A stretch of DNA of 64,000 nucleotides, from IMG/VR virus record IMGVR_UViG_3300005563_000031, positions 41,785 to 105,784 of that record; one strand, written 5' to 3'. The stretch comes from a virus. Of the stretch, positions 2,186 to 37,600 are shown one piece after another. The translations under genes and the position numbers were made by a program. The notes beneath the pieces are model-generated. The model had not been told where the DNA came from. It ran no database searches and saw only the letters and a list, made by a program, of their open reading frames with translations. Numbering within the stretch: the first letter of the stretch is position 1; every line of letters begins with the position of its first letter.

Positions 2186-3691
2186 ATGGTCACTGCAGTA
2201 AAGGTACAAGGTAATGCGCTCGTAGACGGCGACGGTACGCCGCTACAGCTGCGCGGTGTAAACTGTTCGGCGCTCGAATTCGTGGCGATCCAATACGCCT
2301 CCGCATCCCCCAAAACCAACTTCGATAACTGGGGCGGCCAAAAGCCGAATCTCAGCGCTGTCAAGTCCTGGGGCGCCAACAGCATCCGTGTGCCTCTCAA
2401 CGAGCAAAGTTACCTTGGACTCGTATGCACTGACCAAACCGGTGCGCAACTTTTGGCAGATCCGGGCGGTAACTACCGCAGTGCTGTGAAAGCGATCGTG
2501 GACAGTGCGACCGCATTGGGGTTGGCGGTGATTTTGGACTTGCACAAGAACACCGCCAACTTCACACCGGCCGGCGCCAGTACGGCAGTGCCTGGCTTGT
2601 CCAACACGAGCGGACAGTCGGAGATGGCGGATGCCGACCACAGCTACGACTTCTGGTCGGCGGTTGCGAACGATTACAAAACCTACCCCAACGTGCTGTT
2701 TGACCTCTTTAACGAGCCGCATATTGACAATTTCCAAAATCCCAGCACTTTCTCACCAAACCCCGGCACTAGCTTGCCGGCAGGACTGAACACCGAAGCG
2801 GCATGGGCGTGGGCTGTGTGGCGCGACGGGGGCACCGGTAAGCTGATCTACGCCAACAACCAGACCTACTCGCAGAACTATGCCTCTGCCGGCATGCAGG
2901 CCATGTTGGATGCCGTGCGCGCGACCGGCGCCACGAACATATGCATGGCGGGCGGGGTATCGTGGGCGCAAGACCTTGCGTTGTGGACGCAGTTTTGTCC
3001 CATCGATCCGATCAAACAACTGGCGTGCTCGTGGCATGCGTACCCGAGCCAACAGAACCCCGCCTACCCGAGCTATCCGCCGGGCACGTGGTGGGGGCAG
3101 CCGAAGGGCTCGTTTGATTACGCAGCCGACATTCTCGCCGCCGGCTACCCGATCATTATCGGCGAAACAGGAGACGATCCCAACAACCAACTCATGCCTG
3201 TACTGTTGCCGTGGGCGGATGCGCACAAAGTATCTGTTACCGCGTGGACATGGGATGTGGGGTGGGGGAATGATTCACTCATTGCGGATGCGAGTGGCAC
3301 ACCTGTAAACACCGGCATCGCGTACAAACAATGGCTTCAAACGCACACCTCCGGAGGTACTCCTGTGTCCACTACCCAAAATGCAGCCCTGTCGATCGCC
3401 TACAACAGCGTGGCCGGTTTCCCGGCGGGCAGCGTCGTTGACCACATCAACGTTGCACTTACGGCGAAAAACAACACCGCCAACACCCCGCCTGCCAAAA
3501 ACGTCGCGCCCGGCACTGCCAATGTGACCTTCACAGGACTCGCACCGGACACGTACCAAATTGCCGTGCAAGCAATGCCAGCGACGGGCAGCGGGTTTGG
3601 CACGCCGGCAAGCGGCTCGATTACCATTACGCAAGTCAACACCACTATCTCGTTGTCGCTGCCAAGCACTGTCACTGCTACACAGCCGTAA
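2186..3691 (+). CDS. GH5 (cellulase-family) glycoside hydrolase with C-terminal Ig/Fn3-like domain
   Basis: LRGVN, WGANSIRVPLN, VILDLH, FDLFNEP (acid/base), SWHAY, PIIIGETG (nucleophile), AWTW. Confidence 0.9.
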   Translation: MVTAVKVQGNALVDGDGTPLQLRGVNCSALEFVAIQYASASPKTNFDNWGGQKPNLSAVKSWGANSIRVPLNEQSYLGLVCTDQTGAQLLADPGGNYRSAVKAIVDSATALGLAVILDLHKNTANFTPAGASTAVPGLSNTSGQSEMADADHSYDFWSAVANDYKTYPNVLFDLFNEPHIDNFQNPSTFSPNPGTSLPAGLNTEAAWAWAVWRDGGTGKLIYANNQTYSQNYASAGMQAMLDAVRATGATNICMAGGVSWAQDLALWTQFCPIDPIKQLACSWHAYPSQQNPAYPSYPPGTWWGQPKGSFDYAADILAAGYPIIIGETGDDPNNQLMPVLLPWADAHKVSVTAWTWDVGWGNDSLIADASGTPVNTGIAYKQWLQTHTSGGTPVSTTQNAALSIAYNSVAGFPAGSVVDHINVALTAKNNTANTPPAKNVAPGTANVTFTGLAPDTYQIAVQAMPATGSGFGTPASGSITITQVNTTISLSLPSTVTATQP

Positions 3692-3954
3692 TGGGTCTTC
3701 GAACGACCGTTGCAGGATTGGAACAGTGGGCAATCTTGCGCGACGTGTCACTGGATTTGCCCAAGCCGGGTGTGCTCAAAGCATGTCCGTTTTGCGGGCA
3801 TCCGGCCGCATTTGCTGACAATAGCAAGCGCTACCAAGGACACGACAAGTACGTTATTGCCGTGTCCTGTTCCAACACGAGCTGCGGTGTGGTGACGCCG
3901 GGTCACTACACCACACGAGAGACTGCGGCCGAGGCGTGGAACCGGCGCGTGTAA
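3691..3954 (+). CDS. Lar-family restriction alleviation protein
   Basis: LKACPFCG...CSNTSCG...AAEAWNRR. Confidence 0.8.
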   Translation: MGLRTTVAGLEQWAILRDVSLDLPKPGVLKACPFCGHPAAFADNSKRYQGHDKYVIAVSCSNTSCGVVTPGHYTTRETAAEAWNRRV

Positions 3955-3975
3955 CAATTCGGTGACATTTGGTGT

Positions 3976-4051
3976 TGGATCACCCGGATGGAATCGAACC
4001 ATCATGTACGATGTTCAAAGCATCGTTGGGATACCAGTAACCCACAGGTGA
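3976..4051 (-). tRNA. tRNA-Gln(TTG)
   Basis: cloverleaf, loop CTTTGAA, encoded CCA. Confidence 0.9.
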
Positions 4052-4054
4052 AAA

Positions 4055-4189
4055 ATGAGTCGATTTGAACGTGTGGTGATCCAACTGCTGATCATTATCG
4101 CTAATAGGGTAGCGCGCAGTGCATCACCTGCAGACAGAATAAACATCGATCACGACGGGTGGCCGATGTACGGCGACAAACCCTTTTAA
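4055..4189 (+). CDS. 44-aa hypothetical protein antisense to the tRNA array
   Basis: ATG..TAA fills the spacer between the two Gln tRNAs; AGGTG upstream. Confidence 0.45.
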   Translation: MSRFERVVIQLLIIIANRVARSASPADRINIDHDGWPMYGDKPF

Positions 4190-4190
4190 A

Positions 4191-4266
4191 TGGATCAGGC
4201 GGTTGGAATCGAACCAACGTGAACTGCGTTCAGAGCGCAGTGGGGATGCCAGCAACCCACACCTGA
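4191..4266 (-). tRNA. tRNA-Gln(CTG)
   Basis: cloverleaf, loop CTCTGAA, CCA. Confidence 0.9.
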
Positions 4267-4274
4267 GAATTTCT

Positions 4275-4457
4275 ATGACAACAGAGAAAACTGCTATTTG
4301 CGGAGCGATCCGGCCTCAAGAAAAGCCTACGTGCCGACGTTCGCAAAAGATTGGCGGGCCGCGCTATGTTTGTGGACGCGAACCGAAGCACGAGGGGCCG
4401 TGCGGCTGCTGGCGGTTTTTGTCGCAGGTCGCTGCTGCGAAATTGGCGGGAAGGTAA
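4275..4457 (+). CDS. small Cys/His-rich hypothetical protein
   Basis: MTTEK...CGREPKHEGPC; occupies the Gln-Trp spacer. Confidence 0.45.
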   Translation: MTTEKTAICGAIRPQEKPTCRRSQKIGGPRYVCGREPKHEGPCGCWRFLSQVAAAKLAGR

Positions 4458-4515
4458 GGAGTTGCACCCTACTTTTGGGGTTTGGAGTCCCATAGCTCGC
4501 TCCGAGCACCGACCC
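4444..4515 (-). tRNA. tRNA-Trp(CCA)
   Basis: loop CTCCAAA, CCA; two acceptor mismatches; T-loop TGCAACT. Confidence 0.8.
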
Positions 4516-4523
4516 GTGAAACT

Positions 4524-4886
4524 ATGCCTATCTACGGTAGTCTAACACTACGCGCACGAATACTGGCAAACGATGAGCCGGCGTGGTTGAAAAAGCACGC
4601 ACGCCGCGATTACATCGTGCAAGTACATCTTGCCACACCACGCTGGTACTCGCGTAAAGAAGTCGTACGGCTTAAGCAGAAGGCGCACGAGCTGTCGAAA
4701 GCGAAACGACGCAAGTACGTACTGGACCACATCATCCCCCTCACACACAAGCGCGTATGCGGTTTAAACGTACACCACAATATGCAAATCATCGATGCCG
4801 GCACGAATGCGCGCAAATCCAATCACTGGTGCGAGTGGCACGGGGAGTTATTCGCGGAACCTGAGCAGTTTCCACTGTTTCGATAG
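4524..4886 (+). CDS. HNH endonuclease
   Basis: ATPRW...DHIIPL...VCGLNVHHNMQII...NARKSN. Confidence 0.8.
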   Translation: MPIYGSLTLRARILANDEPAWLKKHARRDYIVQVHLATPRWYSRKEVVRLKQKAHELSKAKRRKYVLDHIIPLTHKRVCGLNVHHNMQIIDAGTNARKSNHWCEWHGELFAEPEQFPLFR

Positions 4887-4887
4887 C

Positions 4888-4972
4888 GTGCCGGGCGCCG
4901 CGTGCCCATCGGTGCTAGGAAGTTTTGTGGCCCGCAAGCGGGGAAGATTCCTACGACGGGACGCCCATGCAC
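4888..4972 (-). ncRNA. rod-like structured RNA candidate
   Basis: nested helices GGGCG/CGCCC, CCCGTCG/CGATGGG, TAGGAA/TTCCTA, CCCGC/GCGGG. Confidence 0.5.
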
Positions 4973-4974
4973 TC

Positions 4975-5063
4975 TGGCGGAAGGCAGTGAACTCGAATCA
5001 CAAACGCTTATCGCGTTCCATCCGCTTTCCAAGCGGCTCGAGGCCCTGCCTCGTTTACCTTCC
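4975..5063 (-). tRNA. tRNA-Ser(GGA)
   Basis: long variable arm, G73, CCA. Confidence 0.9.
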
Positions 5064-5068
5064 AATGT

Positions 5069-5157
5069 TGGCGGATACCGTAGGAGTCGAACCTACACGG
5101 CCCGTTAAGACCCTAACACCGCTTTCAAGGCGGGCGAGCGCGCCAGTGCGGGTATCC
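5069..5157 (-). tRNA. tRNA-Ser(TGA)
   Basis: long variable arm, loop CTTGAAA, CCA. Confidence 0.9.
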
Positions 5158-5165
5158 GAAAAGTA

Positions 5166-5223
5166 GGTGAGGCCCGGTGCAGCGGATAGCACTTGGACAG
5201 GTGCGTCCACACCGGGGGTCACC
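5166..5223 (-). ncRNA. structured RNA candidate (hairpin with possible pseudoknot)
   Basis: GGTGA/TCACC, CCCGGTG/CACCGGG, TGGAC/GTCCA; loop GCAC complementary to downstream GTGC. Confidence 0.45.
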
Positions 5224-5231
5224 GAGCAGCT

Positions 5232-5275
5232 GAACCGGAACTGCGCTTGTTCCTTACTGGCCTTTCGGCCGGTTC
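5232..5275 (-). ncRNA. three-way-junction RNA motif, copy 1
   Basis: GAACC-[GGCC GAAA GGCC]-AGTAA-[GGAAC..GTTCC]-GGTTC; 22 nt identical to copy at 6119-6140. Confidence 0.65.
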
Positions 5276-5292
5276 GTTTGCGAGTATAAGGG

Positions 5293-5383
5293 CACTTGCG
5301 CGCGGGTGCAGTCGCTTACTGCACCTTGCGTCACGACCAACGCGCAGCAGGAGCGACACTGCCGCCATGGCGTCTAGCAAGTG
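5293..5383 (-). ncRNA. multi-branch RNA with kissing loops
   Basis: closing stem CACTTGC/GCAAGTG, four internal hairpins, complementary loops TCGCT and AGCGA. Confidence 0.55.
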
Positions 5384-5388
5384 TTTTC

Positions 5389-5476
5389 TGGCGGATGGCA
5401 ATGGAGTCGAACCACAAGCGCTTGCGCACTCCATCTGTTTTCGAGGCAGTGCTGACACCGTGTCAGTTTACCATCC
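5389..5476 (-). tRNA. tRNA-Ser(CGA)
   Basis: long variable arm, loop CTCGAAA, CCA. Confidence 0.9.
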
Positions 5477-5490
5477 GTAAAATCTAAGGC

Positions 5491-5567
5491 GGTTAGGTTT
5501 AAGTAGGGGGCAAACCCTTACCCGGCGCCGGGCCCAGCATCACCGCAAGCCCCTACCAGTCTTGACC
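5491..5567. ncRNA. structured RNA candidate (strand uncertain)
   Basis: GTAGG(GG)/(CC)CCTAC closing stem; CCCGG/CCGGG and GGG/CCC hairpins. Confidence 0.35.
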
Positions 5568-5589
5568 AGCAAGTACCGGTAGGAATGTT

Positions 5590-5678
5590 TGGCGGAAAGC
5601 AGTGTACTCGAAACACACACCCGTTAGGATGCCCTCTGTTTAGCAAACAGGTACGAGCGCCTGCCCGTTTTACTTTCC
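5590..5678 (-). tRNA. tRNA-Ser(GCT)
   Basis: long variable arm, loop TTGCTAA, CCA. Confidence 0.9.
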
Positions 5679-5684
5679 GTAAAT

Positions 5685-5763
5685 TGGTCCCCGCAGCAGC
5701 TTGGGGAGCTGCGACCGTCCGGTTAAAAGCCGGATGCTCTTCACCCGTGTGAGCTATACGAGG
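5685..5763 (-). tRNA. tRNA-Lys(TTT) with non-canonical T-loop
   Basis: loop CTTTTAA, all stems intact, CCA; T-arm GCAGC-TCCCCAA-GCTGC. Confidence 0.8.
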
Positions 5764-5769
5764 AATGTT

Positions 5770-5845
5770 TGGTGCTCAGTGATGGAGTTGAACCATCTAT
5801 CTCCGCGTTACGAATGCGGCGCATCGCCGGCAATGCTTACCGAGC
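5770..5845 (-). tRNA. tRNA-Thr(CGT)
   Basis: loop TTCGTAA, CCA. Confidence 0.9.
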
Positions 5846-5945
5846 TTATCGGAATAAGAAGACTGTACCAAACATGCTCGCACCATCGGCAGCAAAACAC
5901 CGCGCGCCATCCTCGTAGTCGTTTGCCGCACTGTCTGCAGTTCAT
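5808..5945 (-). CDS. 45-aa putative zinc-finger protein
   Basis: MNCRQCGKRL...FCCRWC; 3' end overlaps tRNA-Thr. Confidence 0.35.
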   Translation of the reverse strand: MNCRQCGKRLRGWRAVFCCRWCEHVWYSLLIPISSVSIAGDAPHS

Positions 5946-5959
5946 GTTGGAATTATACA

Positions 5960-6034
5960 TGGAGCCCCACGTTGGACTTGCGCCAACCCTCGCTACTTAC
6001 AAGGCAGCTACACCGCTATCTGTGTTTGTAGGGC
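5960..6034 (-). tRNA. tRNA-Thr(TGT)
   Basis: loop CTTGTAA, CCA, T-loop CGCAAGT. Confidence 0.85.
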
Positions 6035-6042
6035 GAAAAGTA

Positions 6043-6087
6043 CCGCCGAGCCCCTGTGCACACGCAGGTATTGGAAAGGCCCGGCGG
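6043..6087 (-). ncRNA. bulged hairpin RNA candidate
   Basis: 10-bp stem CCGCCGGGCC/GGCTCGGCGG, 9-nt bulge, apical hairpin. Confidence 0.4.
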
Positions 6088-6099
6088 ATTTTGCAATTA

Positions 6100-6140
6100 G
6101 AACCAGACGCTGGCGCCTTTACTGGCCTTTCGGCCGGTTC
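6100..6140 (-). ncRNA. three-way-junction RNA motif, copy 2
   Basis: same core as 5232-5275 with a different but still pairing P3 (AGGCG/CGTCT). Confidence 0.65.
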
Positions 6141-6159
6141 AATATGCATACTAACATGT

Positions 6160-6235
6160 TGGTGCCTCACCGACGAATTGCACGTCGCGCCTCATCTTTA
6201 CCAAAGATGCGTTCCGCTCGCAGAACTTGAGAGGC
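6160..6235 (-). tRNA. tRNA-Thr(GGT)
   Basis: loop TTGGTAA, CCA. Confidence 0.9.
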
Positions 6236-6242
6236 AGTAAAT

Positions 6243-6316
6243 TGGCCTCCACGGTTGGACTCGAACCAACAACAGCAAGCCTTCGGAGGGCTCGCGCCGT
6301 ATCCGACGGCGTGGAG
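6243..6316 (-). tRNA. tRNA-Arg(CCG)
   Basis: loop CTCCGAA, short D-arm, CCA. Confidence 0.85.
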
Positions 6317-6323
6317 TTTAAAG

Positions 6324-6397
6324 TGGCACCCCCGGTTGGACTCGAACCAACATATCTGCCGTTCGTAGCGGCGGATCCTTGTTCCGAAGGCAGGGGC
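6324..6397 (-). tRNA. tRNA-Arg(ACG)
   Basis: loop CTACGAA, CCA. Confidence 0.85.
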
Positions 6398-6409
6398 GTA
6401 GAAAACTGT

Positions 6410-6474
6410 CCGGCGGCAGTAGGCGCGAGTACGGCTTGCGCTTTCGCCGCGCACTTACCTTAAAGGCCTGCCGG
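6410..6474 (-). ncRNA. structured RNA candidate
   Basis: CCGGC/GCCGG closing stem; apical CGGC-GAAAGCGCAA-GCCG. Confidence 0.4.
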
Positions 6475-6482
6475 TATGGCCG

Positions 6483-6653
6483 TTACACCGGTTTGTAAAG
6501 GGCTTGGTAGTAAAATAAATGGTTTAGCGTGTCTGAACACAGGCGCTCGCACACTGCCACACCACCGGCCAATAACCACCCTTTGTTTAGGTAGTCAGTG
6601 ACTTCGTTATTAAAGTACTGCAAGTTTGTGTTACTTACTACGATGTATTTCAA
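6483..6653 (-). CDS. DUF1737-like small protein (56 aa)
   Basis: TTG start; KYIVV...FNNEVTDYLNKGWLLAGGV...YYQAL resembles DUF1737; absent from the ORF track. Confidence 0.65.
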   Translation of the reverse strand: MKYIVVSNTNLQYFNNEVTDYLNKGWLLAGGVAVCERLCSDTLNHLFYYQALYKPV

Positions 6654-6656
6654 TGT

Positions 6657-6752
6657 TGGTACTCGATGTAGGATTTGAACCTAACCCGTTGCAGCCAGTC
6701 CGACCGCTCTCGCACGCTTATAAGGCGCACCCGCACACCAGTGCTATCGAGT
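6657..6752 (-). tRNA. tRNA with TAT anticodon (Ile) and long variable arm
   Basis: acceptor ACTCGAT/ATCGAGT, loop CTTATAA, ~27-nt variable region, A73, CCA. Confidence 0.8.
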
Positions 6753-6764
6753 ATTGCTCCTTTC

Positions 6765-6840
6765 CGAGGGGCGGCGGGCAGTGTAGTTAGCGACGCTACA
6801 CTGAGTTGGGAGCTACCCAACCAACCCCGCAGGCCCCTCG
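6765..6840 (-). ncRNA. three-way-junction RNA with kissing loops
   Basis: CGAGGGGC/GCCCCTCG plus GCGGG/CCCGC; hairpins GTTGGG/CCCAAC and CAGTGTAG/CTACACTG; loops TAGC and GCTA. Confidence 0.6.
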
Positions 6841-6850
6841 TACTTCTTTG

Positions 6851-6927
6851 TTGCGGTAGCTGGACTTGCACCAGCCTTAAATCGGCTTATGAAACCGTGG
6901 CGAAACTACCTTCGACCATATACCGCA
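6851..6927 (-). tRNA. tRNA-Met/Ile2(CAT), no encoded CCA
   Basis: loop TTCATAA, acceptor TGCGGTA/TACCGCA. Confidence 0.8.
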
Positions 6928-7099
6928 AAATTGTGCCCGCTTCGCTTTTCATTTCGTGGCAACGGACTAACACGCGGTGGCACCTATCAGCTCCCTACAT
7001 GCATGCAACGCATTTGGGCGGGGATGGAGGCAGGGGTTAGGGAATGCGCATGTCTAGAATACGCCAATACACCTAAAGCCGTACCAACACCCCCATACC

Positions 7100-7174
7100 T
7101 GGTAGCGGGAGAGGGATTCGAACCCCCGACCTTCTGGTTATGAGCCAGACGAGCTACCTCTGCTCTATCCCGCA
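7100..7174 (-). tRNA. tRNA-fMet(CAT)
   Basis: loop CTCATAA, 1:72 mismatch, CCA. Confidence 0.9.
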
Positions 7175-7183
7175 TCAAACAAT

Positions 7184-7239
7184 GCCGCGTTCCTCTTATA
7201 TACCGGATACGCGGCCAACCCGGTATTGCAATTCGAGGA
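7184..7239 (-). ncRNA. H-type pseudoknot RNA
   Basis: S1 ATACCGG/CCGGTAT, S2 GCCGCGT/ACGCGGC, loops 4/2/9 nt, purine-rich L3. Confidence 0.6.
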
Positions 7240-7314
7240 GGTGCTGTTGGGACTATCCTACAGGAGAACAAAGGACAGACCGGACTTATGGACGCTACGT
7301 GTCCCAACAGCACC
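7240..7314 (-). ncRNA. RNA closed by a perfect 14-bp terminal stem
   Basis: GGTGCTGTTGGGAC/GTCCCAACAGCACC around a 47-nt loop. Confidence 0.55.
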
Positions 7315-7344
7315 GACAACCGAACTATACAGCGAACTTTGAAT

Positions 7345-7419
7345 TGGTGCCTCGAGAAGTGCTCGCACCTTCGTATCTGGGTTTTCAGGCCAGCGCTACT
7401 CTGTCTCAGCTATCGAGGC
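7345..7419 (-). tRNA. tRNA-Phe(GAA)
   Basis: loop CTGAAAA, CCA, atypical T-loop. Confidence 0.85.
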
Positions 7420-7425
7420 AAATAC

Positions 7426-7511
7426 TGGTCCTCACGGCTGGACTTGCACCAGCACGCCGGTTAAGGCACAGCGTTCTCAACACTGCGTGTCTGCTGTTTC
7501 ACCACGCGAGG
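7426..7511 (-). tRNA. tRNA-Leu(GAG)
   Basis: long variable arm, loop TTGAGAA, CCA. Confidence 0.9.
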
Positions 7512-7518
7512 AATAGTT

Positions 7519-7767
7519 TCAACGGATCGTTTCAATAGTCTTACCATCCTCGTTCATAATGTAGGCGACGTTGTAGGAACAGGACTGGTCCATTCCCACT
7601 GTTACCTCTGTAGTTTCACCCGGTGCGTCGCCGCACTGTATAACCGCGCACAAGTTTTCCTTGTACGTTACGTGGACGGCTTTCGCCTCACGCACTGATA
7701 TCGCTTCTGTGTATGAGGGCTTAGCGGGCGCTTCTGGCCCGTACTTATAGAATTTTACTGTCAACAT
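7519..7767 (-). CDS. hypothetical protein
   Basis: ORF fills a tRNA spacer; C-terminal AYIMNEDGKTIETI. Confidence 0.75.
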   Translation of the reverse strand: MLTVKFYKYGPEAPAKPSYTEAISVREAKAVHVTYKENLCAVIQCGDAPGETTEVTVGMDQSCSYNVAYIMNEDGKTIETIR

Positions 7768-7797
7768 AGTCTACTCGTCCTACTACTGCTAAGAAAC

Positions 7798-7881
7798 TGG
7801 TACCTCTGGTGAGAGTTGCACTCACACACCTTGCGGCGCCGGAATTTGAAGCCGGTGCGTCTGCTGTTCCGCCACAGAGGC
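7798..7881 (-). tRNA. tRNA-Leu(CAA)
   Basis: loop TTCAAAT, variable arm, CCA. Confidence 0.9.
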
Positions 7882-7887
7882 AAAAGT

Positions 7888-7964
7888 TGGTATCCCCGGC
7901 GGGAGTTGCACCCGCAGTTGAACGGATTTTAAGTCCGCTGTGTCTGCTATTCCACCACGAGGAT
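7888..7964 (-). tRNA. tRNA-Leu(TAA) with short variable loop
   Basis: loop CTTAAAA, 77 nt, CCA. Confidence 0.85.
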
Positions 7965-7967
7965 GAA

Positions 7968-8038
7968 TGGGCACCCACGGTTGGAGTCGAACCAACGCTG
8001 GTAGCTTAGGAGGCCACTTTCGTTCCGCCGACGTGGGT
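7968..8038 (-). tRNA. tRNA-Arg(CCT)
   Basis: loop CTCCTAA, shortened D-arm, 3' end GCCCA. Confidence 0.75.
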
Positions 8039-8039
8039 A

Positions 8040-8201
8040 TCACAGATGAACAGTACCTGCGACTACGGTAATGGCGAGGATAAGGCAGATCAGCAGCACC
8101 GCAATGTGCAGCAGTGGGCCCGGTTTGCCTATCATCGACATGATCGTGATGATCGCAGCGGCGATCAAAAATACGAGAACGAGAATTGCAGCAGCACTCA
8201 T
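8040..8201 (-). CDS. 53-aa two-TM membrane protein
   Basis: AAGGAG SD; two hydrophobic helices. Confidence 0.7.
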   Translation of the reverse strand: MSAAAILVLVFLIAAAIITIMSMIGKPGPLLHIAVLLICLILAITVVAGTVHL

Positions 8202-8259
8202 GTTGGAAACTCCTTTTCTAACACGGGTGGGCGGTAGCAAGTAACGCTCCCGACACAGC

Positions 8260-8332
8260 TGGCACCCTCGGTTGGAGTCGAACCAACAGTCTGCGGCTTA
8301 GAAGGCGCGCTACCGATCCGGCCGGCGAGGGC
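8260..8332 (-). tRNA. tRNA-Arg(TCT)
   Basis: loop CTTCTAA, CCA. Confidence 0.8.
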
Positions 8333-8338
8333 GAAGGG

Positions 8339-8410
8339 TGGAGCGGAAAATGGGAGTCGAACCCATCAGCGGCGTCGTTGGCAACGATACCTCACACCAT
8401 GTGCATCCGC
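8339..8410 (-). tRNA. tRNA-Gly(GCC)
   Basis: loop TTGCCAA, U73, CCA. Confidence 0.85.
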
Positions 8411-8418
8411 ATGTTCAG

Positions 8419-8556
8419 TTCTTTCGTCCGTCCCACTGTTGCATTATGGGCAACCACCCGAGAGGATTTGCCGCTACCTCTGACATCTCCCACTTAAAGG
8501 AGGGAGCGCTCTGGTGCTCTGAGCTACGAGTGTTATCAACAGTCGCCACGAAAGAA
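8419..8556 (-). ncRNA. stalked tRNA-like RNA 1 (core 8454-8533)
   Basis: D-arm GCTC/GAGC, 10-nt anticodon loop, 11-nt T-loop, no CCA; flanks pair ACTGTTG/CAACAGT and TTCTTTCGT/ACGAAAGAA. Confidence 0.7.
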
Positions 8557-8558
8557 TT

Positions 8559-8634
8559 TGGTGCATGCTGTTGGATTCGAACCAACTGCCTCCCGGTTAT
8601 CAGCCGGGTGCGCATCCGTATGTGCCTCGCATGC
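8559..8634 (-). tRNA. tRNA-Ile(GAT)
   Basis: loop CTGATAA, CCA. Confidence 0.9.
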
Positions 8635-8643
8635 GAAATAGAT

Positions 8644-8744
8644 GTGGGTATTTGTCCGGCACCCACCGAGCCGTGCGGCTATTGCAGCGTAACCGCGACA
8701 CCTCCAGCGCTTGCATTGGCACTGGACCGGGCCGTTAAAGGTGT
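8644..8744 (-). ncRNA. multi-hairpin RNA candidate
   Basis: TCCAGTGC/GCGCTGGA, AGCCG/CGGCT, GTGGGT/ACCCAC, ACACC/GGTGT. Confidence 0.35.
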
Positions 8745-8856
8745 AGTGAAGTAGGATGTTTGGATTTGCACCAAGACCTCTGTTATTCCGCACGTCTGCG
8801 GATTCGACAGTGCTCTTCTATGACTGAGCTAACACCCTACATATTCACTATACCTT
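8738..8856 (-). ncRNA. stalked tRNA-like RNA 2 (core 8752-8839, no anticodon loop)
   Basis: 8-bp acceptor, 4-bp T-stem, D-arm; anticodon arm replaced by long hairpin; flanks pair TAGTGAA/TTCACTA and AAGGT/ACCTT. Confidence 0.7.
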
Positions 8857-8861
8857 GAAGT

Positions 8862-8936
8862 TGGTCGGAGTAGTAGGAATCGAACCTACCTTGTCGTGCT
8901 CCCAAAGCACGCGATCAGCCACTGACCCACACTCCG
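8862..8936 (-). tRNA. tRNA-Pro(TGG)
   Basis: loop TTTGGGA, C1-G72, CCA. Confidence 0.9.
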
Positions 8937-8993
8937 ATGGCGAGTGTCTCTCCGCTCCTGTCACGCCTGGATCGCCCGGCGTTCGGCATTGGC

Positions 8994-9071
8994 TGGTGCG
9001 GGTAGCAGGATTTGAACCTACGGCCCCGTGCGCCCGAGGCACGTGCTCTGACCAGACTGAGCTATACCCAC
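8994..9071 (-). tRNA. tRNA-Pro(CGG)
   Basis: loop CTCGGGC, CCA; G1-C72 instead of C1-G72. Confidence 0.85.
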
Positions 9072-9081
9072 ATGTTAGAAT

Positions 9082-9158
9082 TGGAGCACCCGGCCGGACT
9101 TGCACCGACGATTTTAACGCTTTGCAGGCGCCTGCATTTGCTGCTCTGCCACGGGTGC
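9082..9158 (-). tRNA. tRNA-Cys(GCA)
   Basis: loop CTGCAAA, U73, CCA. Confidence 0.9.
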
Positions 9159-9162
9159 GTGT

Positions 9163-9236
9163 TGGAGGGTCGTAATGGAGTCGAACCATTTATGGAGTCC
9201 GGTCACAGCGGAGTCCGGCTACCGAGCCAACGGCCC
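9163..9236 (-). tRNA. tRNA-His(GTG), atypical
   Basis: loop CTGTGAC, CCA; no G-1, U73. Confidence 0.75.
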
Positions 9237-9243
9237 ATTGTTT

Positions 9244-9327
9244 GTGCCTTCCCGCGCACGGCTTGCGGCCGGTCGATCGCGTGGCGCGAGTCACGGCGCA
9301 CTCCGAGGTGCGCTGGGCTTGATCGAC
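9244..9327 (-). ncRNA. structured RNA candidate
   Basis: GTCGATC/GATCGAC, GCGCAC/GTGCGC, CGGC-CGCAA-GCCG. Confidence 0.45.
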
Positions 9328-9332
9328 AAAGT

Positions 9333-9420
9333 TGGTACCTCTGGAGGGAATTGCACCCCCATGCCGTTTTACGGGCGCTGCGGTCTGAACGCAGTGTGTC
9401 TTCTGTTTCACCACAGAGGC
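9333..9420 (-). tRNA. tRNA-Leu(CAG)
   Basis: long variable arm, loop TTCAGAC, CCA. Confidence 0.9.
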
Positions 9421-9429
9421 AAAATGAGC

Positions 9430-9561
9430 ATTAGGACAGTGCGCTGGTGCCGCGTTGGCATTCGCGCAAACCTCCGTTAGACAGCGCTATCTAACATCAT
9501 CGATCCTGCTTTATACAGCTTGCATAGCCCCACTCGATATGGGACACGGCACTGTCCTAAT
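9430..9561 (-). ncRNA. 132-nt multi-branch RNA closed by a perfect 13-bp stem
   Basis: ATTAGGACAGTGC/GCACTGTCCTAAT; internal hairpins; loop ATCGA complementary to TCGAT. Confidence 0.6.
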
Positions 9562-9562
9562 T

Positions 9563-9637
9563 TGGTAGACCGTACGGGATTCGAACCCGCCTAACATGCT
9601 TGAAAGGCACGTTGCATCACCGAGACGCATACGGTCC
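9563..9637 (-). tRNA. tRNA-Glu(TTC)
   Basis: loop CTTTCAA, CCA. Confidence 0.9.
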
Positions 9638-9648
9638 GTAAAATTTAA

Positions 9649-9789
9649 GTGGCTCTGGCGCATAGGGGTACTCGTGTGAGGCGCATGCGCCACTGGCGGA
9701 GACAGGTACCTGGCACGACTTACGCACCGTTGCTGCGTCGTAACCTGCGCTGGCTTGCCAGGCGAGAGCGGTCTGTGCGGCAGAGCTAC
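9649..9789 (-). ncRNA. ~140-nt structured RNA candidate
   Basis: GTAGCTCTG/CAGAGCCAC, CCTGGC/GCCAGG, ACGAC/GTCGT, TGGCGCATG/TATGCGCCA. Confidence 0.5.
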
Positions 9790-9812
9790 TAAGTATACCG
9801 CACGACAAACAC

Positions 9813-9890
9813 TGGTAGACGTGACGAGACTCTAACTCGTTAGGCTACGGTTGAGAACCGCACTGCGCGAGACACTTTGCATTCACGTCC
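9813..9890 (-). tRNA. tRNA-Glu(CTC)
   Basis: loop TTCTCAA, CCA. Confidence 0.85.
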
Positions 9891-9898
9891 ATAAAAAT

Positions 9899-9970
9899 TG
9901 GTGGAGCTGTCGGGAGTTGAACCCGCAGGGTTTCCTTGCAAGGGAGACCCGTTGCCCGCAACACAACCCC
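9899..9970 (-). tRNA. tRNA-Ala(TGC)
   Basis: G3:U70, loop CTTGCAA, CCA. Confidence 0.9.
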
Positions 9971-9986
9971 GTGGTTCTTTGGTCTA

Positions 9987-10053
9987 GCCCAACATCTGAC
10001 GGCTGGGCAGGCGCACATAACAGCAACGTCACCGGTAATTAACTGCTACATGT
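9987..10053 (-). ncRNA. two-hairpin kissing-loop RNA candidate
   Basis: TAGCAG/TTGCTG and GCCCAGC/GTTGGGC hairpins; loops TGACG and CGTCA. Confidence 0.5.
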
Positions 10054-10072
10054 TGATCGCTTTTCGACTTAC

Positions 10073-10148
10073 TGGTAGGCCGCCAGGGATTCGAACCCTG
10101 GACCAACTGGTTAAGAGCCAGCTGCTCTTGCCGCTGAGCTAGCGACCT
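10073..10148 (-). tRNA. tRNA-Lys(CTT)
   Basis: canonical cloverleaf, loop CTCTTAA, CCA. Confidence 0.95.
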
Positions 10149-10156
10149 ATAAAGTT

Positions 10157-10244
10157 ACGCTTCCGGTCATCTGCGCCGAATATCCCGTGGGCTAGTACCC
10201 ACATGCTACAGGACATGGACGGGCGTACAGAGCCGGACTTGCGT
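10157..10244 (-). ncRNA. stalked two-hairpin RNA with possible pseudoknot
   Basis: ACGC/GCGT, TCCGG/CCGGA, TCTG/CAGA, CGCC/GGCG; loop TCCTG vs CGGGA. Confidence 0.5.
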
Positions 10245-10246
10245 TC

Positions 10247-10337
10247 TGGTGCGTCGCGGATGGAATCGAACCTCGTGCCCTAAAGGGACCTGGTTTACAG
10301 CCAGGCGAGCGGCCACCACTCCTTACTTGCGCAACGC
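10247..10337 (-). tRNA. tRNA-Tyr(GTA)
   Basis: loop CTGTAAA, long variable arm, CCA. Confidence 0.85.
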
Positions 10338-10342
10338 ATGGT

Positions 10343-10414
10343 TGGTACCCGATGTGAGGATTGAACTCACTCCACCAACTTTGTAGGAGTCGGCGCCGTC
10401 CCAACGGTCCGGGC
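10343..10414 (-). tRNA. tRNA-Val(TAC)
   Basis: loop CCTACAA (C33), CCA. Confidence 0.8.
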
Positions 10415-10420
10415 ATAAAC

Positions 10421-10648
10421 AAAAAGGATGACAATAGGCGTGCATCAGACGCCTCGTTTTACGTCACGGCTCGCGCCGCTTGGCTAGCTGCTCGCAGGTG
10501 GTCCGTAGACCACCATTTTCGTCACCGCTTCTACCAGCGGCTCCTCGAACGTCGTTAGGCCGACTACCCAGCCAATTCTCGTATCCTCAAAAATCGTTGA
10601 CGACCTATTTTTTATCGTGGTCAGCCGTCAGTGTTTTCCAGTCCTTTT
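10421..10648 (-). ncRNA. ~230-nt large structured RNA candidate
   Basis: terminal AAAAGGA/TCCTTTT, ACGGCT/AGCCGT, TTGGCTGG/CTAGCCAA, GGTGGTC-TACG-GACCACC, AGGCGT/ACGCCT, CCGCT/AGCGG. Confidence 0.6.
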
Positions 10649-10720
10649 TGGCGCCTCCAACGGGACTCGAACCCGTCACCCACTCGATAGACAGTCGAGT
10701 TTCACCCCAGGTGTAGAGGC
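10649..10720 (-). tRNA. tRNA-Asp(GTC)
   Basis: loop CTGTCTA, G73, CCA. Confidence 0.85.
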
Positions 10721-10736
10721 AGGTTCTAACACTTAG

Positions 10737-10810
10737 CTGTAGGCCTGGGGCTCGAACCCAGCGCATCTCCGTTAACAGCGGAGCCTACACGCCCGGTGCA
10801 GTTGCCTACA
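10737..10810 (-). tRNA. tRNA-Asn(GTT), no CCA, acceptor extended by leader-trailer stalk (10725-10823)
   Basis: loop CTGTTAA, G73; flanks TCTAACACTT/AAGTGTTAGA. Confidence 0.85.
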
Positions 10811-10825
10811 GCAAAGTGTTAGATT

Positions 10826-10899
10826 TGGAGCGGACGGTGGGAATCAAACCCACCTCATTGCGTTGGAAGCGCAAGGCCCAGTCACTAGACCACGCCCGC
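10826..10899 (-). tRNA. tRNA-Gly(TCC)
   Basis: loop CTTCCAA, U73, CCA; first tRNA of the operon. Confidence 0.9.
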
Positions 10900-10919
10900 T
10901 CAAACCTAAATGTCAACCG

Positions 10920-10934
10920 AATTGTTAAAGAACG
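10920..10934 (-). promoter_or_regulatory. boxA antitermination element
   Basis: CGTTCTTTAACAATT, close to rrn boxA TGCTCTTTAACAATT, 20 nt before the first tRNA. Confidence 0.7.
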
Positions 10935-11017
10935 TCCGGTGATTTAGTTTGGGGGTGTTGGAAGGAGAGCGGTTGCTTTCCTTTTTGGCCCCCGTCCTGC
11001 ACCGGGGGCAGGAGGGA

Positions 11018-11146
11018 TTAGAGCTTGGTACCTTCGAGTCGGGGCGCTGTTGGCATAATATTCCAACTATCGCGCCCAAACGTCGCCGCGACGACACATT
11101 GCTGCGCCGGATAGGCTAGACGTGAAGGTACTAAGGATCTAAACAT
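11018..11146 (-). CDS. leaderless 42-aa leader peptide of the tRNA operon
   Basis: MFRSLVPSRLAYPAQQCVVAATFGRDSWNIMPTAPRLEGTKL; ATG 6 nt after the -10 box. Confidence 0.6.
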   Translation of the reverse strand: MFRSLVPSRLAYPAQQCVVAATFGRDSWNIMPTAPRLEGTKL

Positions 11147-11152
11147 GTCTAT

Positions 11153-11182
11153 ATACTAAATTCGATTCGATACACATTGCAA
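11153..11182 (-). promoter_or_regulatory. sigma70-like promoter of the tRNA operon
   Basis: TTGCAA-18 nt-TAGTAT, just downstream of a terminator. Confidence 0.65.
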
Positions 11183-11192
11183 GTACTTTCGT

Positions 11193-11222
11193 AAAAATGC
11201 CGGGAGTGGTCAGCTCCCGGCG
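11193..11222 (-). terminator. intrinsic terminator ending the late operon
   Basis: GCCGGGAG/CTCCCGGC hairpin followed by ATTTTT. Confidence 0.7.
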
Positions 11223-11233
11223 AAAGTTACGGA

Positions 11234-11368
11234 CGTATAGCGCAGTGGAAAACCTCGAGAACAACAACACCGAAACTCGAGGCCCATGGTCTGTGCGCGT
11301 CAACATCCGGCAGTCGACACCTACAAGGGAGGTCGTAAGTGTTTTACCGACTGCATTACAACTATACG
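11234..11368 (-). ncRNA. ~135-nt branched RNA candidate
   Basis: CGTATAG/CTATACG, GCAGTCG/CGACTGC, CCTCGAG/CTCGAGG, GCGCA/TGCGC. Confidence 0.5.
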
Positions 11369-11372
11369 CGCG

Positions 11373-11672
11373 TCACCAGTAGTAAACGTGTGGCCGGCGG
11401 TAGCTCGGGAAATTAAGGCTGTCCGGATCGCGACCCAGCTCGATAAGCCGTTCAAGTTGATTTGACCGGATACGCGCGGGGCGAATGTGCATCGTGCGAT
11501 TCCACTCGCCGGAGGGCTCGGTCATAATTTGCAAACGCTTGTTGGGGTGTTGCTCATAGCGATACACATCCGGACGATACCAACACGGACGGTAGTAGCC
11601 GTAAGCAATGAGAATACGCACACGATGTGCACGTGCAACGCGCTGCTGCCAGCGCCGTAAGGATCGCTTCAT
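11373..11672 (-). CDS. Arg-rich hypothetical protein ending RPHVYYW
   Basis: GGGAG SD; basic ORF. Confidence 0.75.
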   Translation of the reverse strand: MKRSLRRWQQRVARAHRVRILIAYGYYRPCWYRPDVYRYEQHPNKRLQIMTEPSGEWNRTMHIRPARIRSNQLERLIELGRDPDSLNFPSYRRPHVYYW

Positions 11673-11721
11673 GTCGAAAGACTCCCGTTAGGTTATCTAA
11701 TTCGACATGAAGTTCTCCTCA
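11668..11721 (-). promoter_or_regulatory. 3-codon uORF within a start-sequestering hairpin
   Basis: GAGGAG-ATG TCG AAT TAG; inverted repeat TTCATGTCGAA/TTCGACATGAA covers both ATGs. Confidence 0.6.
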
Positions 11722-11771
11722 TAGTGGTTCAAAGGTCGCAGTTTCAACGAACGCCTGCTAAGCGCAATCAA

Positions 11772-12218
11772 CTATACCGGATAGGCGCCGGTGAGCAAAT
11801 AGTTAGCAAGCCGATTCGCGCGCTTTTCATGCACCTGCGTGCGCCACTTGCTGTTCAACAATTCGTCGTGCGCCGCCTTCCAGTTATGGAGCCGGATCGC
11901 GGCTCGCGTATCGACAAATCCCAGCCACCTCCCCGCACCCATGTTGAAACACAATTCAACCACCGCGTTGCGCCGACAATCCGTATCCAAGTACGGCCAC
12001 TCCGGTGTCCGCTCCGCGCCCGCGAGTGCCTTCTGTAAATCCACTGTACGCCAATTATCCGCTTGCTGTTGGGTGATCGTGTACCCACTCCACTGTAGCA
12101 TGGGGTCTAGTCTGTGTCCCCACCCGACGGTCCACCATCCTTCGGTGTCGACATAGGCGGTAAGTTCGCACCGCTCGCTGGTGTTGATATCCCTAATAAG
12201 CCGTGCATCGAAGTCCAT
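11772..12218 (-). CDS. endolysin, GH24/T4-type lysozyme
   Basis: E...AYVDTEGWWTVGWGH, FNMG, ELLNSKWRTQV..RA.RL. Confidence 0.9.
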   Translation of the reverse strand: MDFDARLIRDINTSERCELTAYVDTEGWWTVGWGHRLDPMLQWSGYTITQQQADNWRTVDLQKALAGAERTPEWPYLDTDCRRNAVVELCFNMGAGRWLGFVDTRAAIRLHNWKAAHDELLNSKWRTQVHEKRANRLANYLLTGAYPV

Positions 12219-34619: not shown

Positions 34620-37600
34620 TCAATAACCGCCCTTGTACTTCGCGTTCTCTTCCAACTTCGCTTGTATGTAAGCACTCACATTACGCGCTGGTGTCTTATA
34701 GGAGCCGTGTGCATTAACTTCTAGAGCGTCTGTTGACAACTCAACCGCTTTCATATCTCTGTGCGCCAATACGACTACTTCGTGCTCATTCGAGCAACCG
34801 TAGCCAGTACGGTAACTACCAATTACTTGCGAAGCGGGCACACGCGTAATATACACATTGCCACTCCCTCCAAAGCCACTAGCAACACTTAAGCTCGTCG
34901 AGAACGAGCTCATTGGTTGCAACTTAACATTCCGGATGGACACCGCAGCTGCAGGGTCAATGTGCATGCCGCGCGCAACATACAATTCCGTAATGCCGCG
35001 CGAGGCCAACCACGATTGCGTGTTGCGATACATACCGGCCACAAATTCTTTTAAACCCTCGTGCATTACAGTTGCAGGCACTTTATCTTTATAGTCATTG
35101 AGGTAAGTGCCCGACACGGCTGATGCAGCATGCGTCATCAACGTTTCTGTAGATCCGTGCGATTGCAACGAGCCTAGCGCCGAAGTTGCAATCTCATTAT
35201 CTTTCATACCAAACACTTCTTTCGCCGCTAATTGCATAGCAACGGAAAGATCGTTGCTATCACCGGACGACGCAGCCCATGTTTGTACTAACTTAGCCTC
35301 AAGTGAATAGCCACCGCTCGAATCACTTTTAGCGTAAGCCTCTTTGAGCGCTTGGAAATTGGGACTGTCCTTTAATTCCCCCGCCAACTGTTTTTCAACC
35401 GATATCTTGTTACCTTTTGCATCCAAACTGTCCTTAGACAGCGCATTGTGTAGTTTCTCAAGACCTTCCGAGAAGGCGGATTTGCCCGACAACACATCCT
35501 TCGTATCAGCAGCAAACTCGTGCACACCAATCGGTGCTACCCCCACCGCTGTGTCAGTGGGGATGCCTCGCGAGGATTCGGCACTTGGTTTACCAACACC
35601 TTCGCCTAAATGCGCGCTCGAAGTTACTTCGCTCGAGGAAATAGGTTTACCCGATGAATACAACGTGCCGGCCTTTTCCGCAGCCGTATCATTCTTCCAC
35701 TGCGCGTAAGCAGCGGCGTTAGACATGCCCTTATTCAAATTCGCAACAAGGTTCTTATCCGCCTGGAACACTTGTTGTTCTTTGGGTGTTGATTTATCCC
35801 CGTGCGCTGCGTACTGCCACTCCGCCATCGCTTGCGCTTTGGTGTCTTTAAATGCCTTTATATCCGCTTCGGTGCCCGCCGACATATTCAAAGTAACCAA
35901 CGCCACGTTTAATTTCGCAGCGTACACCTTGTCGTGCTCGGCGTTGGAGGAGGGTTGTACGAGGTGCGGTAGGTCCTCATACCCGGTCACAGGCTTAGCG
36001 GCTGCTTCAGGTTTTGCAGCCGGCACATCCTCTTTTGCACCCGCAACATGGCCAACACTTGTAGTGATAGGTTTCGCAGCACCCGCCGTACTCTTAACCT
36101 GATACGAGCCGTCCGGATTTTTCGTAATCTCGAGCTTCCCATACTTACCTGCGTACTTGTCAGATTTGAGGTCTGAAAGCGCGGTTTTGAGGTTCGAGAG
36201 ACTCGCGCCGGTTGCGTGCTGCAATTCGTCGAGTGTGAAGCTATGTCCTGAGGACAATAGCTCGTGCACACCACCCTTAGCACCTGCAACAGTCGTGGCA
36301 GTGGGTTTTGGCCCCTTATCGCTACCTTTGTCCTTCTCCCCGCCACCCGTGCCATCCGTGTACTGGTTGCCGTGGAACGGATGCCCATCCACGTCGCCTT
36401 TCATAACATGCGTCGACAAATAAACCGGCTGCGAGATATCCCCGCGCATCCACTCAATAAACGCACCCCACGACAGCGACGATACAGGACCTAACTTCCA
36501 GCCAGCTTGGTAACTGCCAAGGTATGCTTGTACAGCCGCTTCTTTCGAATCGTACCCTAACAGGACCTTATGCTCATCAAATGTACCATCGAGTTTGAAC
36601 TGGTCTACTATGTAGACAGTGCCAGCCCACTCGTGGTCGGTGCCCGGTCGCACGAAAACATCCAGATGATCTCCATCCGCTCCTGTTGTCCGATTGAAAT
36701 AGCCGTAATGCGCTTGTATCTCAGTCCAACCCGGCTTGCGCGGGGTCCCCGCCGGATTTTCGATCGCGATTGGCAGCCCACCGACGACGATGTGCCCCAT
36801 CTTGTAGTTACCTGCGCGACGCTGCGCGCTAGTTGGTTCGGGGTGCGCGTTACGTGGCGACAGTGCAGCCTCATGGGCTTTATCATCTATCGGGTATTTG
36901 GTCAGCCCCGAAAGCGCTTTCGCTGCTGACGTTGGTGACTCGGGATCGTCTGCCAGCTCCTCGTCGTCGCCGGCTTCATGTCCTTCGCCATAATCGCTTC
37001 CAGTCGGGTTGATTCGAGGAAGTGTCTCGCTCTGGTCACGCTCGATTCCATCGGGGTCACGACGTGCACGGAGACGTTCCAACCGTGCGAAGATATCGCG
37101 TACCGCCTTGTGTAGTTCGCCGGAGGAAGGCTTACCAACAGCGCACCTGTCGCATTGGCTAAGACCGGCAGCCTTATCAACGGCCCCGCCGTCGTCTCCC
37201 TCATCGGGGCCGGCGCCGTCGTCCCCACCGTCATCGTCATCTTCCTCGTCTCCACCGGCTAAGTTAGATACCCAGTCGCACCAGCAATTTGGGTGGCCGG
37301 GTGGATAGTCGTAATCGTCGTCGTCGACAAAGTTATCATCTATATCAACCCAACCCGCTTCTGCTGCTTCCGAGCAGTAACAATCCTCATCCGGATCATG
37401 GTCCGCCGACAGTAACCATTTCTTTTTGGTCGCACCGCCGGCTTTCATCGGCTCCACGCGCCCGTAACTGTGTGCGAATGCCAACTCTGTGTGCGCAATC
37501 ATATCTGCACGTTGCGGGCTGAAAGCGTAGTTGGCTTGTAACTCCGCTGAGAATTCCTGCTTGCTCCATCCCTCCGTAAGCGCGTCCTCAATCGTACCGC

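Follow-up and report, generated by a model that had tools for sequence, protein, structure and literature searches.

Large tRNA arrays are seen as phage counter-measures against host tRNA-cleaving defenses and codon mismatch, and to our knowledge annotation ignores the DNA between phage tRNAs. In phage T4, rnaC (139 nt) and rnaD (119 nt) lie directly after tRNA-Arg on the tRNA strand, and the homing endonuclease gene segB is located inside the cluster. The corresponding RNAs, RNAC (species 1) and RNAD (species 2), which both accumulate late in infection, have no known role (PMC3014915, PMC9697503). In bacteria, spacers of tRNA operons, such as the 3′ external transcribed spacer (3′ETS) of glyW-cysT-leuZ, can act as sponges of small RNAs (sRNAs) (PMC8166272, bioRxiv 10.1101/2021.04.25.441314). 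Here, we analyzed the spacers of a minus-strand phage tRNA array in a 64,000-nt stretch of DNA (IMG/VR record IMGVR_UViG_3300005563_000031, bases 41,785–105,784 of 105,784 bp), which is called the window below and to which all coordinates refer. An initial annotation had described 18 intervals of this array as self-contained folds representing about 15 structured RNAs. Of the proposed elements, a third to half proved to be real and robust folds that are self-contained and lie on the tRNA strand, and signs of selection on RNA structure are seen in some of them. Their sequences are new, and the kind of element has been known since T4.

The window array resembles the T4 cluster in that non-tRNA elements on the tRNA strand abut tRNAs and in that the phage cluster holds an endonuclease gene, which is segB in T4 and an antisense endonuclease VII / HNH-like gene in the window. 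The stability of T4 rnaC, with a minimum free energy (MFE) z-score of −4.57, is about that of the best folds in the window. On the other hand, the window folds have no sequence similarity to the T4 RNAs, and rnaC carries a tRNA-like T-arm, CCGGGUUCGAAUCCCGG, and an acceptor helix at its end, whereas the window folds have no T-arm. T4 encodes two such RNAs at the end of a cluster of eight tRNAs, whereas the six or seven of the window are dispersed among its approximately 40 tRNAs, and accumulation is proven for RNAC and RNAD, whereas the window folds are known from sequence alone. The 3′ETS of glyW-cysT-leuZ is comparable as an RNA that is freed from a tRNA precursor by end processing and that may have a function of its own, but the bacterial 3′ETS RNAs are short, largely unstructured sponges with Hfq-dependent pairing, whereas the window folds are closed and highly paired, with little single-stranded sequence. 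GOLLD, ROOL, YrlA (Y RNA-like) RNA, and transfer-messenger RNA (tmRNA) share the genomic neighborhood beside phage tRNAs; the window folds are much smaller than GOLLD and ROOL and lack the tRNA-like module of YrlA, and the window has no match to any of these families even at E ≤ 10. Ribosomal RNA (rRNA) operons under boxA antitermination are likewise long and untranslated, with a boxA-like head and self-pairing spacers that organize processing. Their spacers pair around the mature RNA as RNase III stalks, whereas the window helices close the spacer itself, and rRNA-style stalks were found in the window only at tRNA-Asn and one tRNA-like element.

Folds in the inter-tRNA spacers

The intervals that were more stable than shuffled sequences, including two borderline cases, are as follows.

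10421–10648 (−), Domain A, a 228-nt multi-branched fold with the closing helix AAAAGGA/UCCUUUU, a UACG hairpin, and a GCGA hairpin
10157–10244 (−), Domain B, an 88-nt long irregular hairpin, borderline (z −2.51, 4 of 200 shuffles as good)
9430–9561 (−), Domain E, a 132-nt five-way junction with a perfect 13-bp closing helix
7240–7314 (−), a 75-nt hairpin with a perfect 14-bp stem (z −4.7 to −5.2, both strands equally good)
6765–6840 (−), a 76-nt Y-shaped fold consisting of a 13-bp stalk and two hairpins, with Watson-Crick pairs throughout
6100–6140 (−), copy 2 of a three-way-junction motif with helices P1 (GAACC/GGUUC), P2 (GGCC-GAAA-GGCC), and P3 (AGGCG/CGUCU) and junction AGUAA (z −2.4)
6043–6087 (−), a GC-rich hairpin after motif copy 2 (z −3.6), followed by TACTTTTC and tRNA-Thr(UGU)
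5232–5275 (−), copy 1 of the motif, with P1, P2, and junction as in copy 2 and P3 GGAAC/GUUCC (z −3.7)
5166–5223 (−), a GC-rich hairpin after motif copy 1 (z −4.55), followed by TACTTTTC and tRNA-Ser(UGA)

The MFE of each of the 18 intervals was compared with those of 200 dinucleotide-preserving shuffles. Seven intervals (5166–5223, 5232–5275, 6043–6087, 6765–6840, 7240–7314, 9430–9561, and 10421–10648) were clearly more stable, with z-scores of −3.6 to −5.2 and none of the 200 shuffles as good, and 6100–6140 and 10157–10244 were borderline with z-scores of about −2.4 to −2.5. The z-scores of 4888–4972, 5293–5383, 5491–5567, 6410–6474, 7184–7239, 8644–8744, 9244–9327, 9649–9789, and 9987–10053 were shuffle-like (−1.9 to +0.4). 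The initial annotation had regarded z-scores no better than those of shuffles as refuting the proposal, and its intervals split evenly in this respect, nine scoring better and nine not. This rule is weak because T4 rnaD, a proven stable RNA, scores only −0.83, which indicates that a poor z-score is compatible with a stable RNA.

When the intervals were refolded with 110 nt per side, neighboring tRNAs included, the nine stable intervals retained 100% of their pairs, with at most one pair across the borders. Five of the shuffle-like intervals (5491–5567, 7184–7239, 8644–8744, 9649–9789, and 9987–10053) retained 0–39% of their pairs and paired beyond their borders. Three of the nine shuffle-like intervals were graded as neutral and six as unsupported, five of the latter being those that dissolve in context. 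The description of the intervals as self-contained folds is thus retained for half of them. Since each three-way-junction motif is coupled with a GC-rich hairpin, the nine stable intervals represent six or seven units, fewer than the 15 or so that had been proposed.

Since the interval borders had been placed at complementary ends, complete spacers were scored as well. The 19 whole spacers averaged a z-score of −1.67 on the tRNA strand, compared with −1.38 for the opposite strand, and 7 of them had a z-score of −2.75 or lower. Length-matched coding pieces of the same phage had a mean z-score of −0.52, and 2 of 57 reached −2.75 (Mann-Whitney p 0.005, Fisher p 6e-4). For other intergenic gaps, the mean was −0.88, and 4 of 41 reached this value (Fisher p 0.017). 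The enrichment of structure in the spacers is real but moderate, and it is carried by about a third of them. For the spacer at 9649–9789, the plus-strand fold (−67.8 kcal/mol) is far better than that of the tRNA strand (−50.1 kcal/mol), and 4267–4439, upstream of the plus-strand endonuclease gene, likewise has its better fold on the plus strand.

Domain A had a z-score of −3.97, with none of 200 shuffles as good, and kept every pair in context; its tRNA-strand fold was 16 kcal/mol better than that of the opposite strand and contained 8 G-U pairs versus 3. Domain E starts 1–2 nt past the CCA of tRNA-Glu and ends 9 nt ahead of tRNA-Leu. Its z-score was −3.95 to −4.5, every pair was retained in context, and its fold reached −54.4 kcal/mol on the minus strand versus −43.4 kcal/mol on the plus strand, with 7 versus 2 G-U pairs. 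The whole spacer containing Domain B had a z-score of −2.75 on the minus strand versus −0.61 on the plus strand, and all pairs of the interval were retained in context. The hairpin at 7240–7314 corresponds to an inverted repeat (I13) with 100% complementarity. The Y-shaped fold at 6765–6840 had a z-score of −4.6 to −4.9 and was strand-symmetric, and its MFE structure accounted for 58% of the ensemble.

The two copies of the three-way-junction motif share an exact 22-nt repeat (5254–5275 and 6119–6140), which occurs twice in the window versus 0.00 expected. The third helix, which occupies exactly the gap ahead of GGUUC, differs in sequence between the copies, with four of the five pairs changed, and all five pairs are kept, for which the probability by chance is about 0.01–0.02. 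This is the only case of within-genome compensation. Both copies are followed by a GC-rich hairpin of differing sequence, the identical leader TACTTTTC, and a tRNA; this layout was read from the sequence and an alignment.

The GNRA and UNCG loops noticed in the initial annotation were found in 5 of the 13 tetraloop hairpins of the spacers on the tRNA strand and in 1 on the other strand, compared with 9 of 229 tetraloop hairpins of coding sequence (p 3e-4; p 2e-3 if the duplicated motif is counted once).

The initial annotation had recognized no known riboswitch, ribozyme, tmRNA, signal recognition particle (SRP) RNA, or 6S RNA, and the Rfam scans agreed with this. Only tRNA reached the gathering score of Rfam 15 in the window, with GOLLD, ROOL, YrlA, tmRNA, 6S, SRP, riboswitches, and small ribozymes unmatched, and a permissive scan of 3000–12000 (E ≤ 10) found nothing within any of the 18 intervals. 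A similar scan served as a positive control: in Rhodobacter phage RcXuper (OP186293.1), it detected a two-piece alphaproteobacterial tmRNA (106–108 bits) and a YrlA-like element (E 8e-6). Both lie at 3216–3749 of that record, in a 1.9-kb stretch of the tRNA region without annotated features. Hidden or decayed tRNAs (RF00005) were rejected as an identity of the folds, as none of the 18 intervals had a tRNA-clan match at E ≤ 10 or a canonical T-arm. Small open reading frames (ORFs) in the stable spacers were also rejected, none being convincing.

Relatives of the array were searched at the DNA, structure, and protein levels. Against 50,697 phage records, the array matched tRNA genes only, among the matches listed by megablast and blastn, and blastn queries with Domain A or Domain E by itself yielded no match or matches at chance level. 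The 22-nt motif was absent from 185,579 prokaryote genomes, and DNA pattern scans of IMG/VR with this motif and with a pair of Arg-Arg T-arms gave no matches. A structure-style pattern of the motif gave 37 matches, which is the number expected by chance, and the helices were present in none of them. IMG/VR scans with the tail protein, the portal, an 82-aa ORF of the array, and two alignments of the tail protein found distant phages of about 50 kb without tRNA arrays; a scan with a PolA alignment found relatives with at most 34% identity, and a metagenome scan with an alignment of the 82-aa ORF found loci without tRNAs that were not otherwise related. Protein searches gave one clear relative, a 103,995-bp Logan contig with 65% identity in PolA and 58% identity in the tail protein.

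The tRNA operon and its transcription

The array and the features in and ahead of it are as follows.

11221–11199, a terminator ahead of the array
10922–10934 (−), a boxA-like element, CGTTCTTTAACAA, that precedes the first tRNA by 23 nt and has 2 mismatches to the E. coli rrn boxA
3976–10899 (−), a polycistronic operon of about 40 tRNA genes, the majority of which encode CCA, together with tRNA-like elements and ORFs
8750–8840, an aberrant tRNA-like element with normal acceptor, D-arm, and T-arm, a hairpin inserted at the site of the anticodon loop, and no CCA
8419–8556, an aberrant tRNA-like element with a loose cloverleaf
8040–8201, a 53-aa membrane ORF within the array
7519–7767 (−), an 82-aa ORF with five metagenomic homologues (59–68% identity)
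6483–6653, a DUF1737-like ORF within the array
5845–5944, a possible 33-aa zinc-ribbon ORF within the array
4482–4886 (+, antisense), an endonuclease VII / HNH-like ORF (phrog_26577, E 1.7e-19; weak match to phrog_1035, endonuclease VII, E 7e-4)

ARAGORN called 23 tRNAs, every one on the minus strand, and the total rose to about 40 within 3976–10899 when Rfam, relaxed ARAGORN settings, a T-arm scan, and reading of the sequence were added, which confirms the earlier description of a tRNA array on one strand. Besides the tRNAs, the array contains the two aberrant tRNA-like elements and three or four small ORFs. One endonuclease gene lies antisense within it, between tRNA-Ser(GGA) and tRNA-Trp. 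The element at 8750–8840 was called by ARAGORN at relaxed settings only. In the fetched loci of the 82-aa ORF homologues, the gene lies outside any tRNA array, and three of these loci also carry a homologue of a 571-aa protein encoded at 52813–54528 of the window.

No sigma-70-like promoter was found within the array, versus 4.3 expected, and terminator-like sites were at the chance level in a consensus scan (10 versus 8.0 expected). Since internal promoters are lacking and terminator-like sites are at chance, the array is most simply taken as one untranslated transcript of about 7 kb. The stable folds are supported as the initial annotation had them, namely as non-coding structures that are not tRNAs and probably not terminators and that lie on the tRNA strand within one transcription unit. 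Boxes of the quality of CGTTCTTTAACAA are expected about once per window by chance, and its position alone is telling; this position suggests rrn-type antitermination of the 7-kb operon.

The tRNA-Asn gene (10736–10810) is flanked by a 20-nt inverted repeat (10725–10823) with 95% complementarity, which lengthens the acceptor stem by about 10 bp, and the leader-trailer duplex had a z-score of −4.2. A general leader-trailer stalk for each tRNA was rejected, as such a stalk was seen only at tRNA-Asn and the element at 8750–8840 among about 39 tRNAs. An anti-Rho bias in spacer composition was also rejected, with no excess of C over G.

Possible roles of the folds

We consider it an even chance that the folds have a structural role in the operon transcript, contributing to folding insulation, processing, and stability, with excised forms that may persist in the manner of T4 RNAC and RNAD. 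Six or seven of the longer inter-tRNA spacers would be shaped at the RNA level into closed, thermodynamically dominant folds, and the remaining spacers would be ordinary filler. Each spacer would be freed by RNase P, which would cleave where the downstream tRNA begins, and by 3′ trimming of the upstream tRNA, and the proposal in the initial annotation that tRNA end processing would cut the folds free is supported. The terminal helix could then shield a fold from 3′ exonucleases, and the folds may persist as by-product RNAs. Their primary role would most likely be in cis, in that 60–240 nt of spacer would be kept from mispairing with tRNA precursors. The folds would also deny Rho and RNase E long single-stranded RNA in the 7-kb untranslated transcript and may punctuate its processing. 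We favor this reading as a whole because the folds are stable relative to shuffles and to coding and intergenic controls and persist in context without pairs to the flanking tRNAs, because sense-strand GNRA/UNCG loops, the compensated twin motif, the single unit with a boxA-like head, and the T4 precedent point in the same direction, and because strong structure (mean z −2.9 in a T5-like phage and −2.6 in RcXuper) is also seen in the unannotated spacers of two unrelated tRNA arrays.

Several observations weigh against this reading. The interval borders were picked in the initial annotation at complementary ends, which inflates the z-scores of single intervals. The G-U pairs said there to favor the tRNA strand show no strand preference overall (72 on the tRNA strand versus 84 on the other) and favor the tRNA strand only at 10413–10650, 9421–9562, 6928–7099, and 7175–7344. 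The folds at 7240–7314 and 6765–6840 and the GC-rich hairpins are perfect Watson-Crick palindromes with the same score on both strands, so that a DNA-level or recent origin is possible for three of the strongest folds. The spacer composition has no anti-Rho bias (C/G 0.99). The comparison with the T5-like phage is confounded by repeated promoter sequences in its spacers, for which reason this array was dropped as a clean control. The folds are known from this one genome.

Some of these points would also fit an absence of any RNA-level function, in which the structures are chance folds of GC-rich filler together with young DNA-level inverted repeats. These repeats might be left over from cassette insertion or recombination, or they might act as cruciform-type sites for the endonuclease VII-like enzyme that the array encodes. 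The shuffle-like half of the intervals, the perfect 13–14-bp stems that lack G-U pairs and fold equally on both strands, the presence of the endonuclease VII / HNH-like gene within the array, and the uniqueness of each fold, for which relatives are not known, agree with such an origin. It does not account for the enrichment of stable folds in the spacers over coding and intergenic controls, the sense-strand GNRA/UNCG enrichment, or the compensated third helix of the twin motif, nor for Domains A and E, which fold 11–16 kcal/mol better on the tRNA strand, and we regard it as rather unlikely. Far less probable is an explanation by internal intrinsic termination or attenuation, in which the folds would split the operon into differently expressed blocks. 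The initial annotation had denied U-tails, and the terminator scan showed this to be mostly right. Of the sites found, 6118–6105 (−) lies inside 6100–6140 and two plus-strand sites lie inside 10421–10648, and none coincides with the terminus of a tRNA-strand stable fold. The two GC-rich hairpins followed by TACTTTTC depart from the absence of U-tails, and these hairpins (6043–6087 and 5166–5223) with the subsequent UACUUUUC, as well as Domain A, which ends in UCCUUUUUGUUUAU, are what a terminator would have in its favor. U-rich leaders of the same kind, however, precede many tRNAs without hairpins, the short U-runs do not adjoin the stems, and most folds are branched rather than simple hairpins. 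The chance-level number of terminator-like sites and the lack of an internal promoter for restarting transcription also speak against termination.

The function put forward in the initial annotation was a library of small RNAs, namely decoys, antitoxin mimics, or protein sponges. Such RNAs, or sRNA sponges, would be freed by tRNA processing and act in trans on host or phage targets. Domains A and E are more elaborate than insulation needs, with five or six helices each, special tetraloops, and a strand-specific fold, and precedents are provided by the accumulation of T4 RNAC and RNAD (PMC9697503) and by the leuZ 3′ETS sponge (PMC8166272, bioRxiv 10.1101/2021.04.25.441314). The library would comprise six or seven units rather than about 15; the Rfam scans yielded no target, partner, or family, and no homologues were found among the matches listed for the 50,697 phage records or in IMG/VR or the 185,579 prokaryote genomes. 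The sequence does not separate a trans role from a cis role, and we judge the library unlikely. A trans role for 10421–10648, 9430–9561, or the twin motif is possible and unproven. The stronger proposal that Domains A and E and the three-way-junction module are new families of structured phage RNAs, which are excised and act in trans during infection, for example on a host nuclease, a defense protein, or a tRNA-modifying or repair enzyme, appears improbable to a similar degree. Were it true, large phage tRNA arrays would also serve to deliver accessory RNAs.

Spacers selected as RNA folds would raise two questions. One is how an untranslated transcript of 7 kb stays processable while being protected from Rho and RNases. 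The other is whether phages ship extra RNAs with their tRNAs, a question that T4 RNAC and RNAD have posed for about 50 years. The window contributes a few well-defined candidates, and for one motif it provides compensatory evidence of its own.

The phage and the genes around the array

The virus record of 105,784 bp is rated as complete by CheckV. Its first 45 kb carry replication genes on the plus strand, including a UDG-PolA fusion, a clamp-loader-like ATPase, a DnaB-like helicase, and an SNF2 helicase, and the rest of the genome consists of minus-strand structural and lysis genes encoding a portal, a MuF-InPase fusion, a baseplate hub, a 1,141-aa tail tip protein, and a lysozyme. The tRNA array is located at the meeting point of these two converging transcription blocks. 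The phage is an uncultivated, lytic-type siphovirus. No cultured relative exceeds 29% identity in PolA, and the closest cultured phages are Brevundimonas siphoviruses, with 41% identity in the portal and 36–37% in the tail protein.

Two plus-strand genes adjoin the array, one at 2186–3691 encoding a glycosyl hydrolase family 5 (cellulase) protein (E 5e-33) and one at 908–2143 encoding an HD-domain / von Willebrand A protein. The MuF-InPase fusion, encoded on the minus strand at 34620–38072, consists of 1,150 amino acid residues and joins a Mu F-like head morphogenesis domain to an inorganic pyrophosphatase (InPase) domain.

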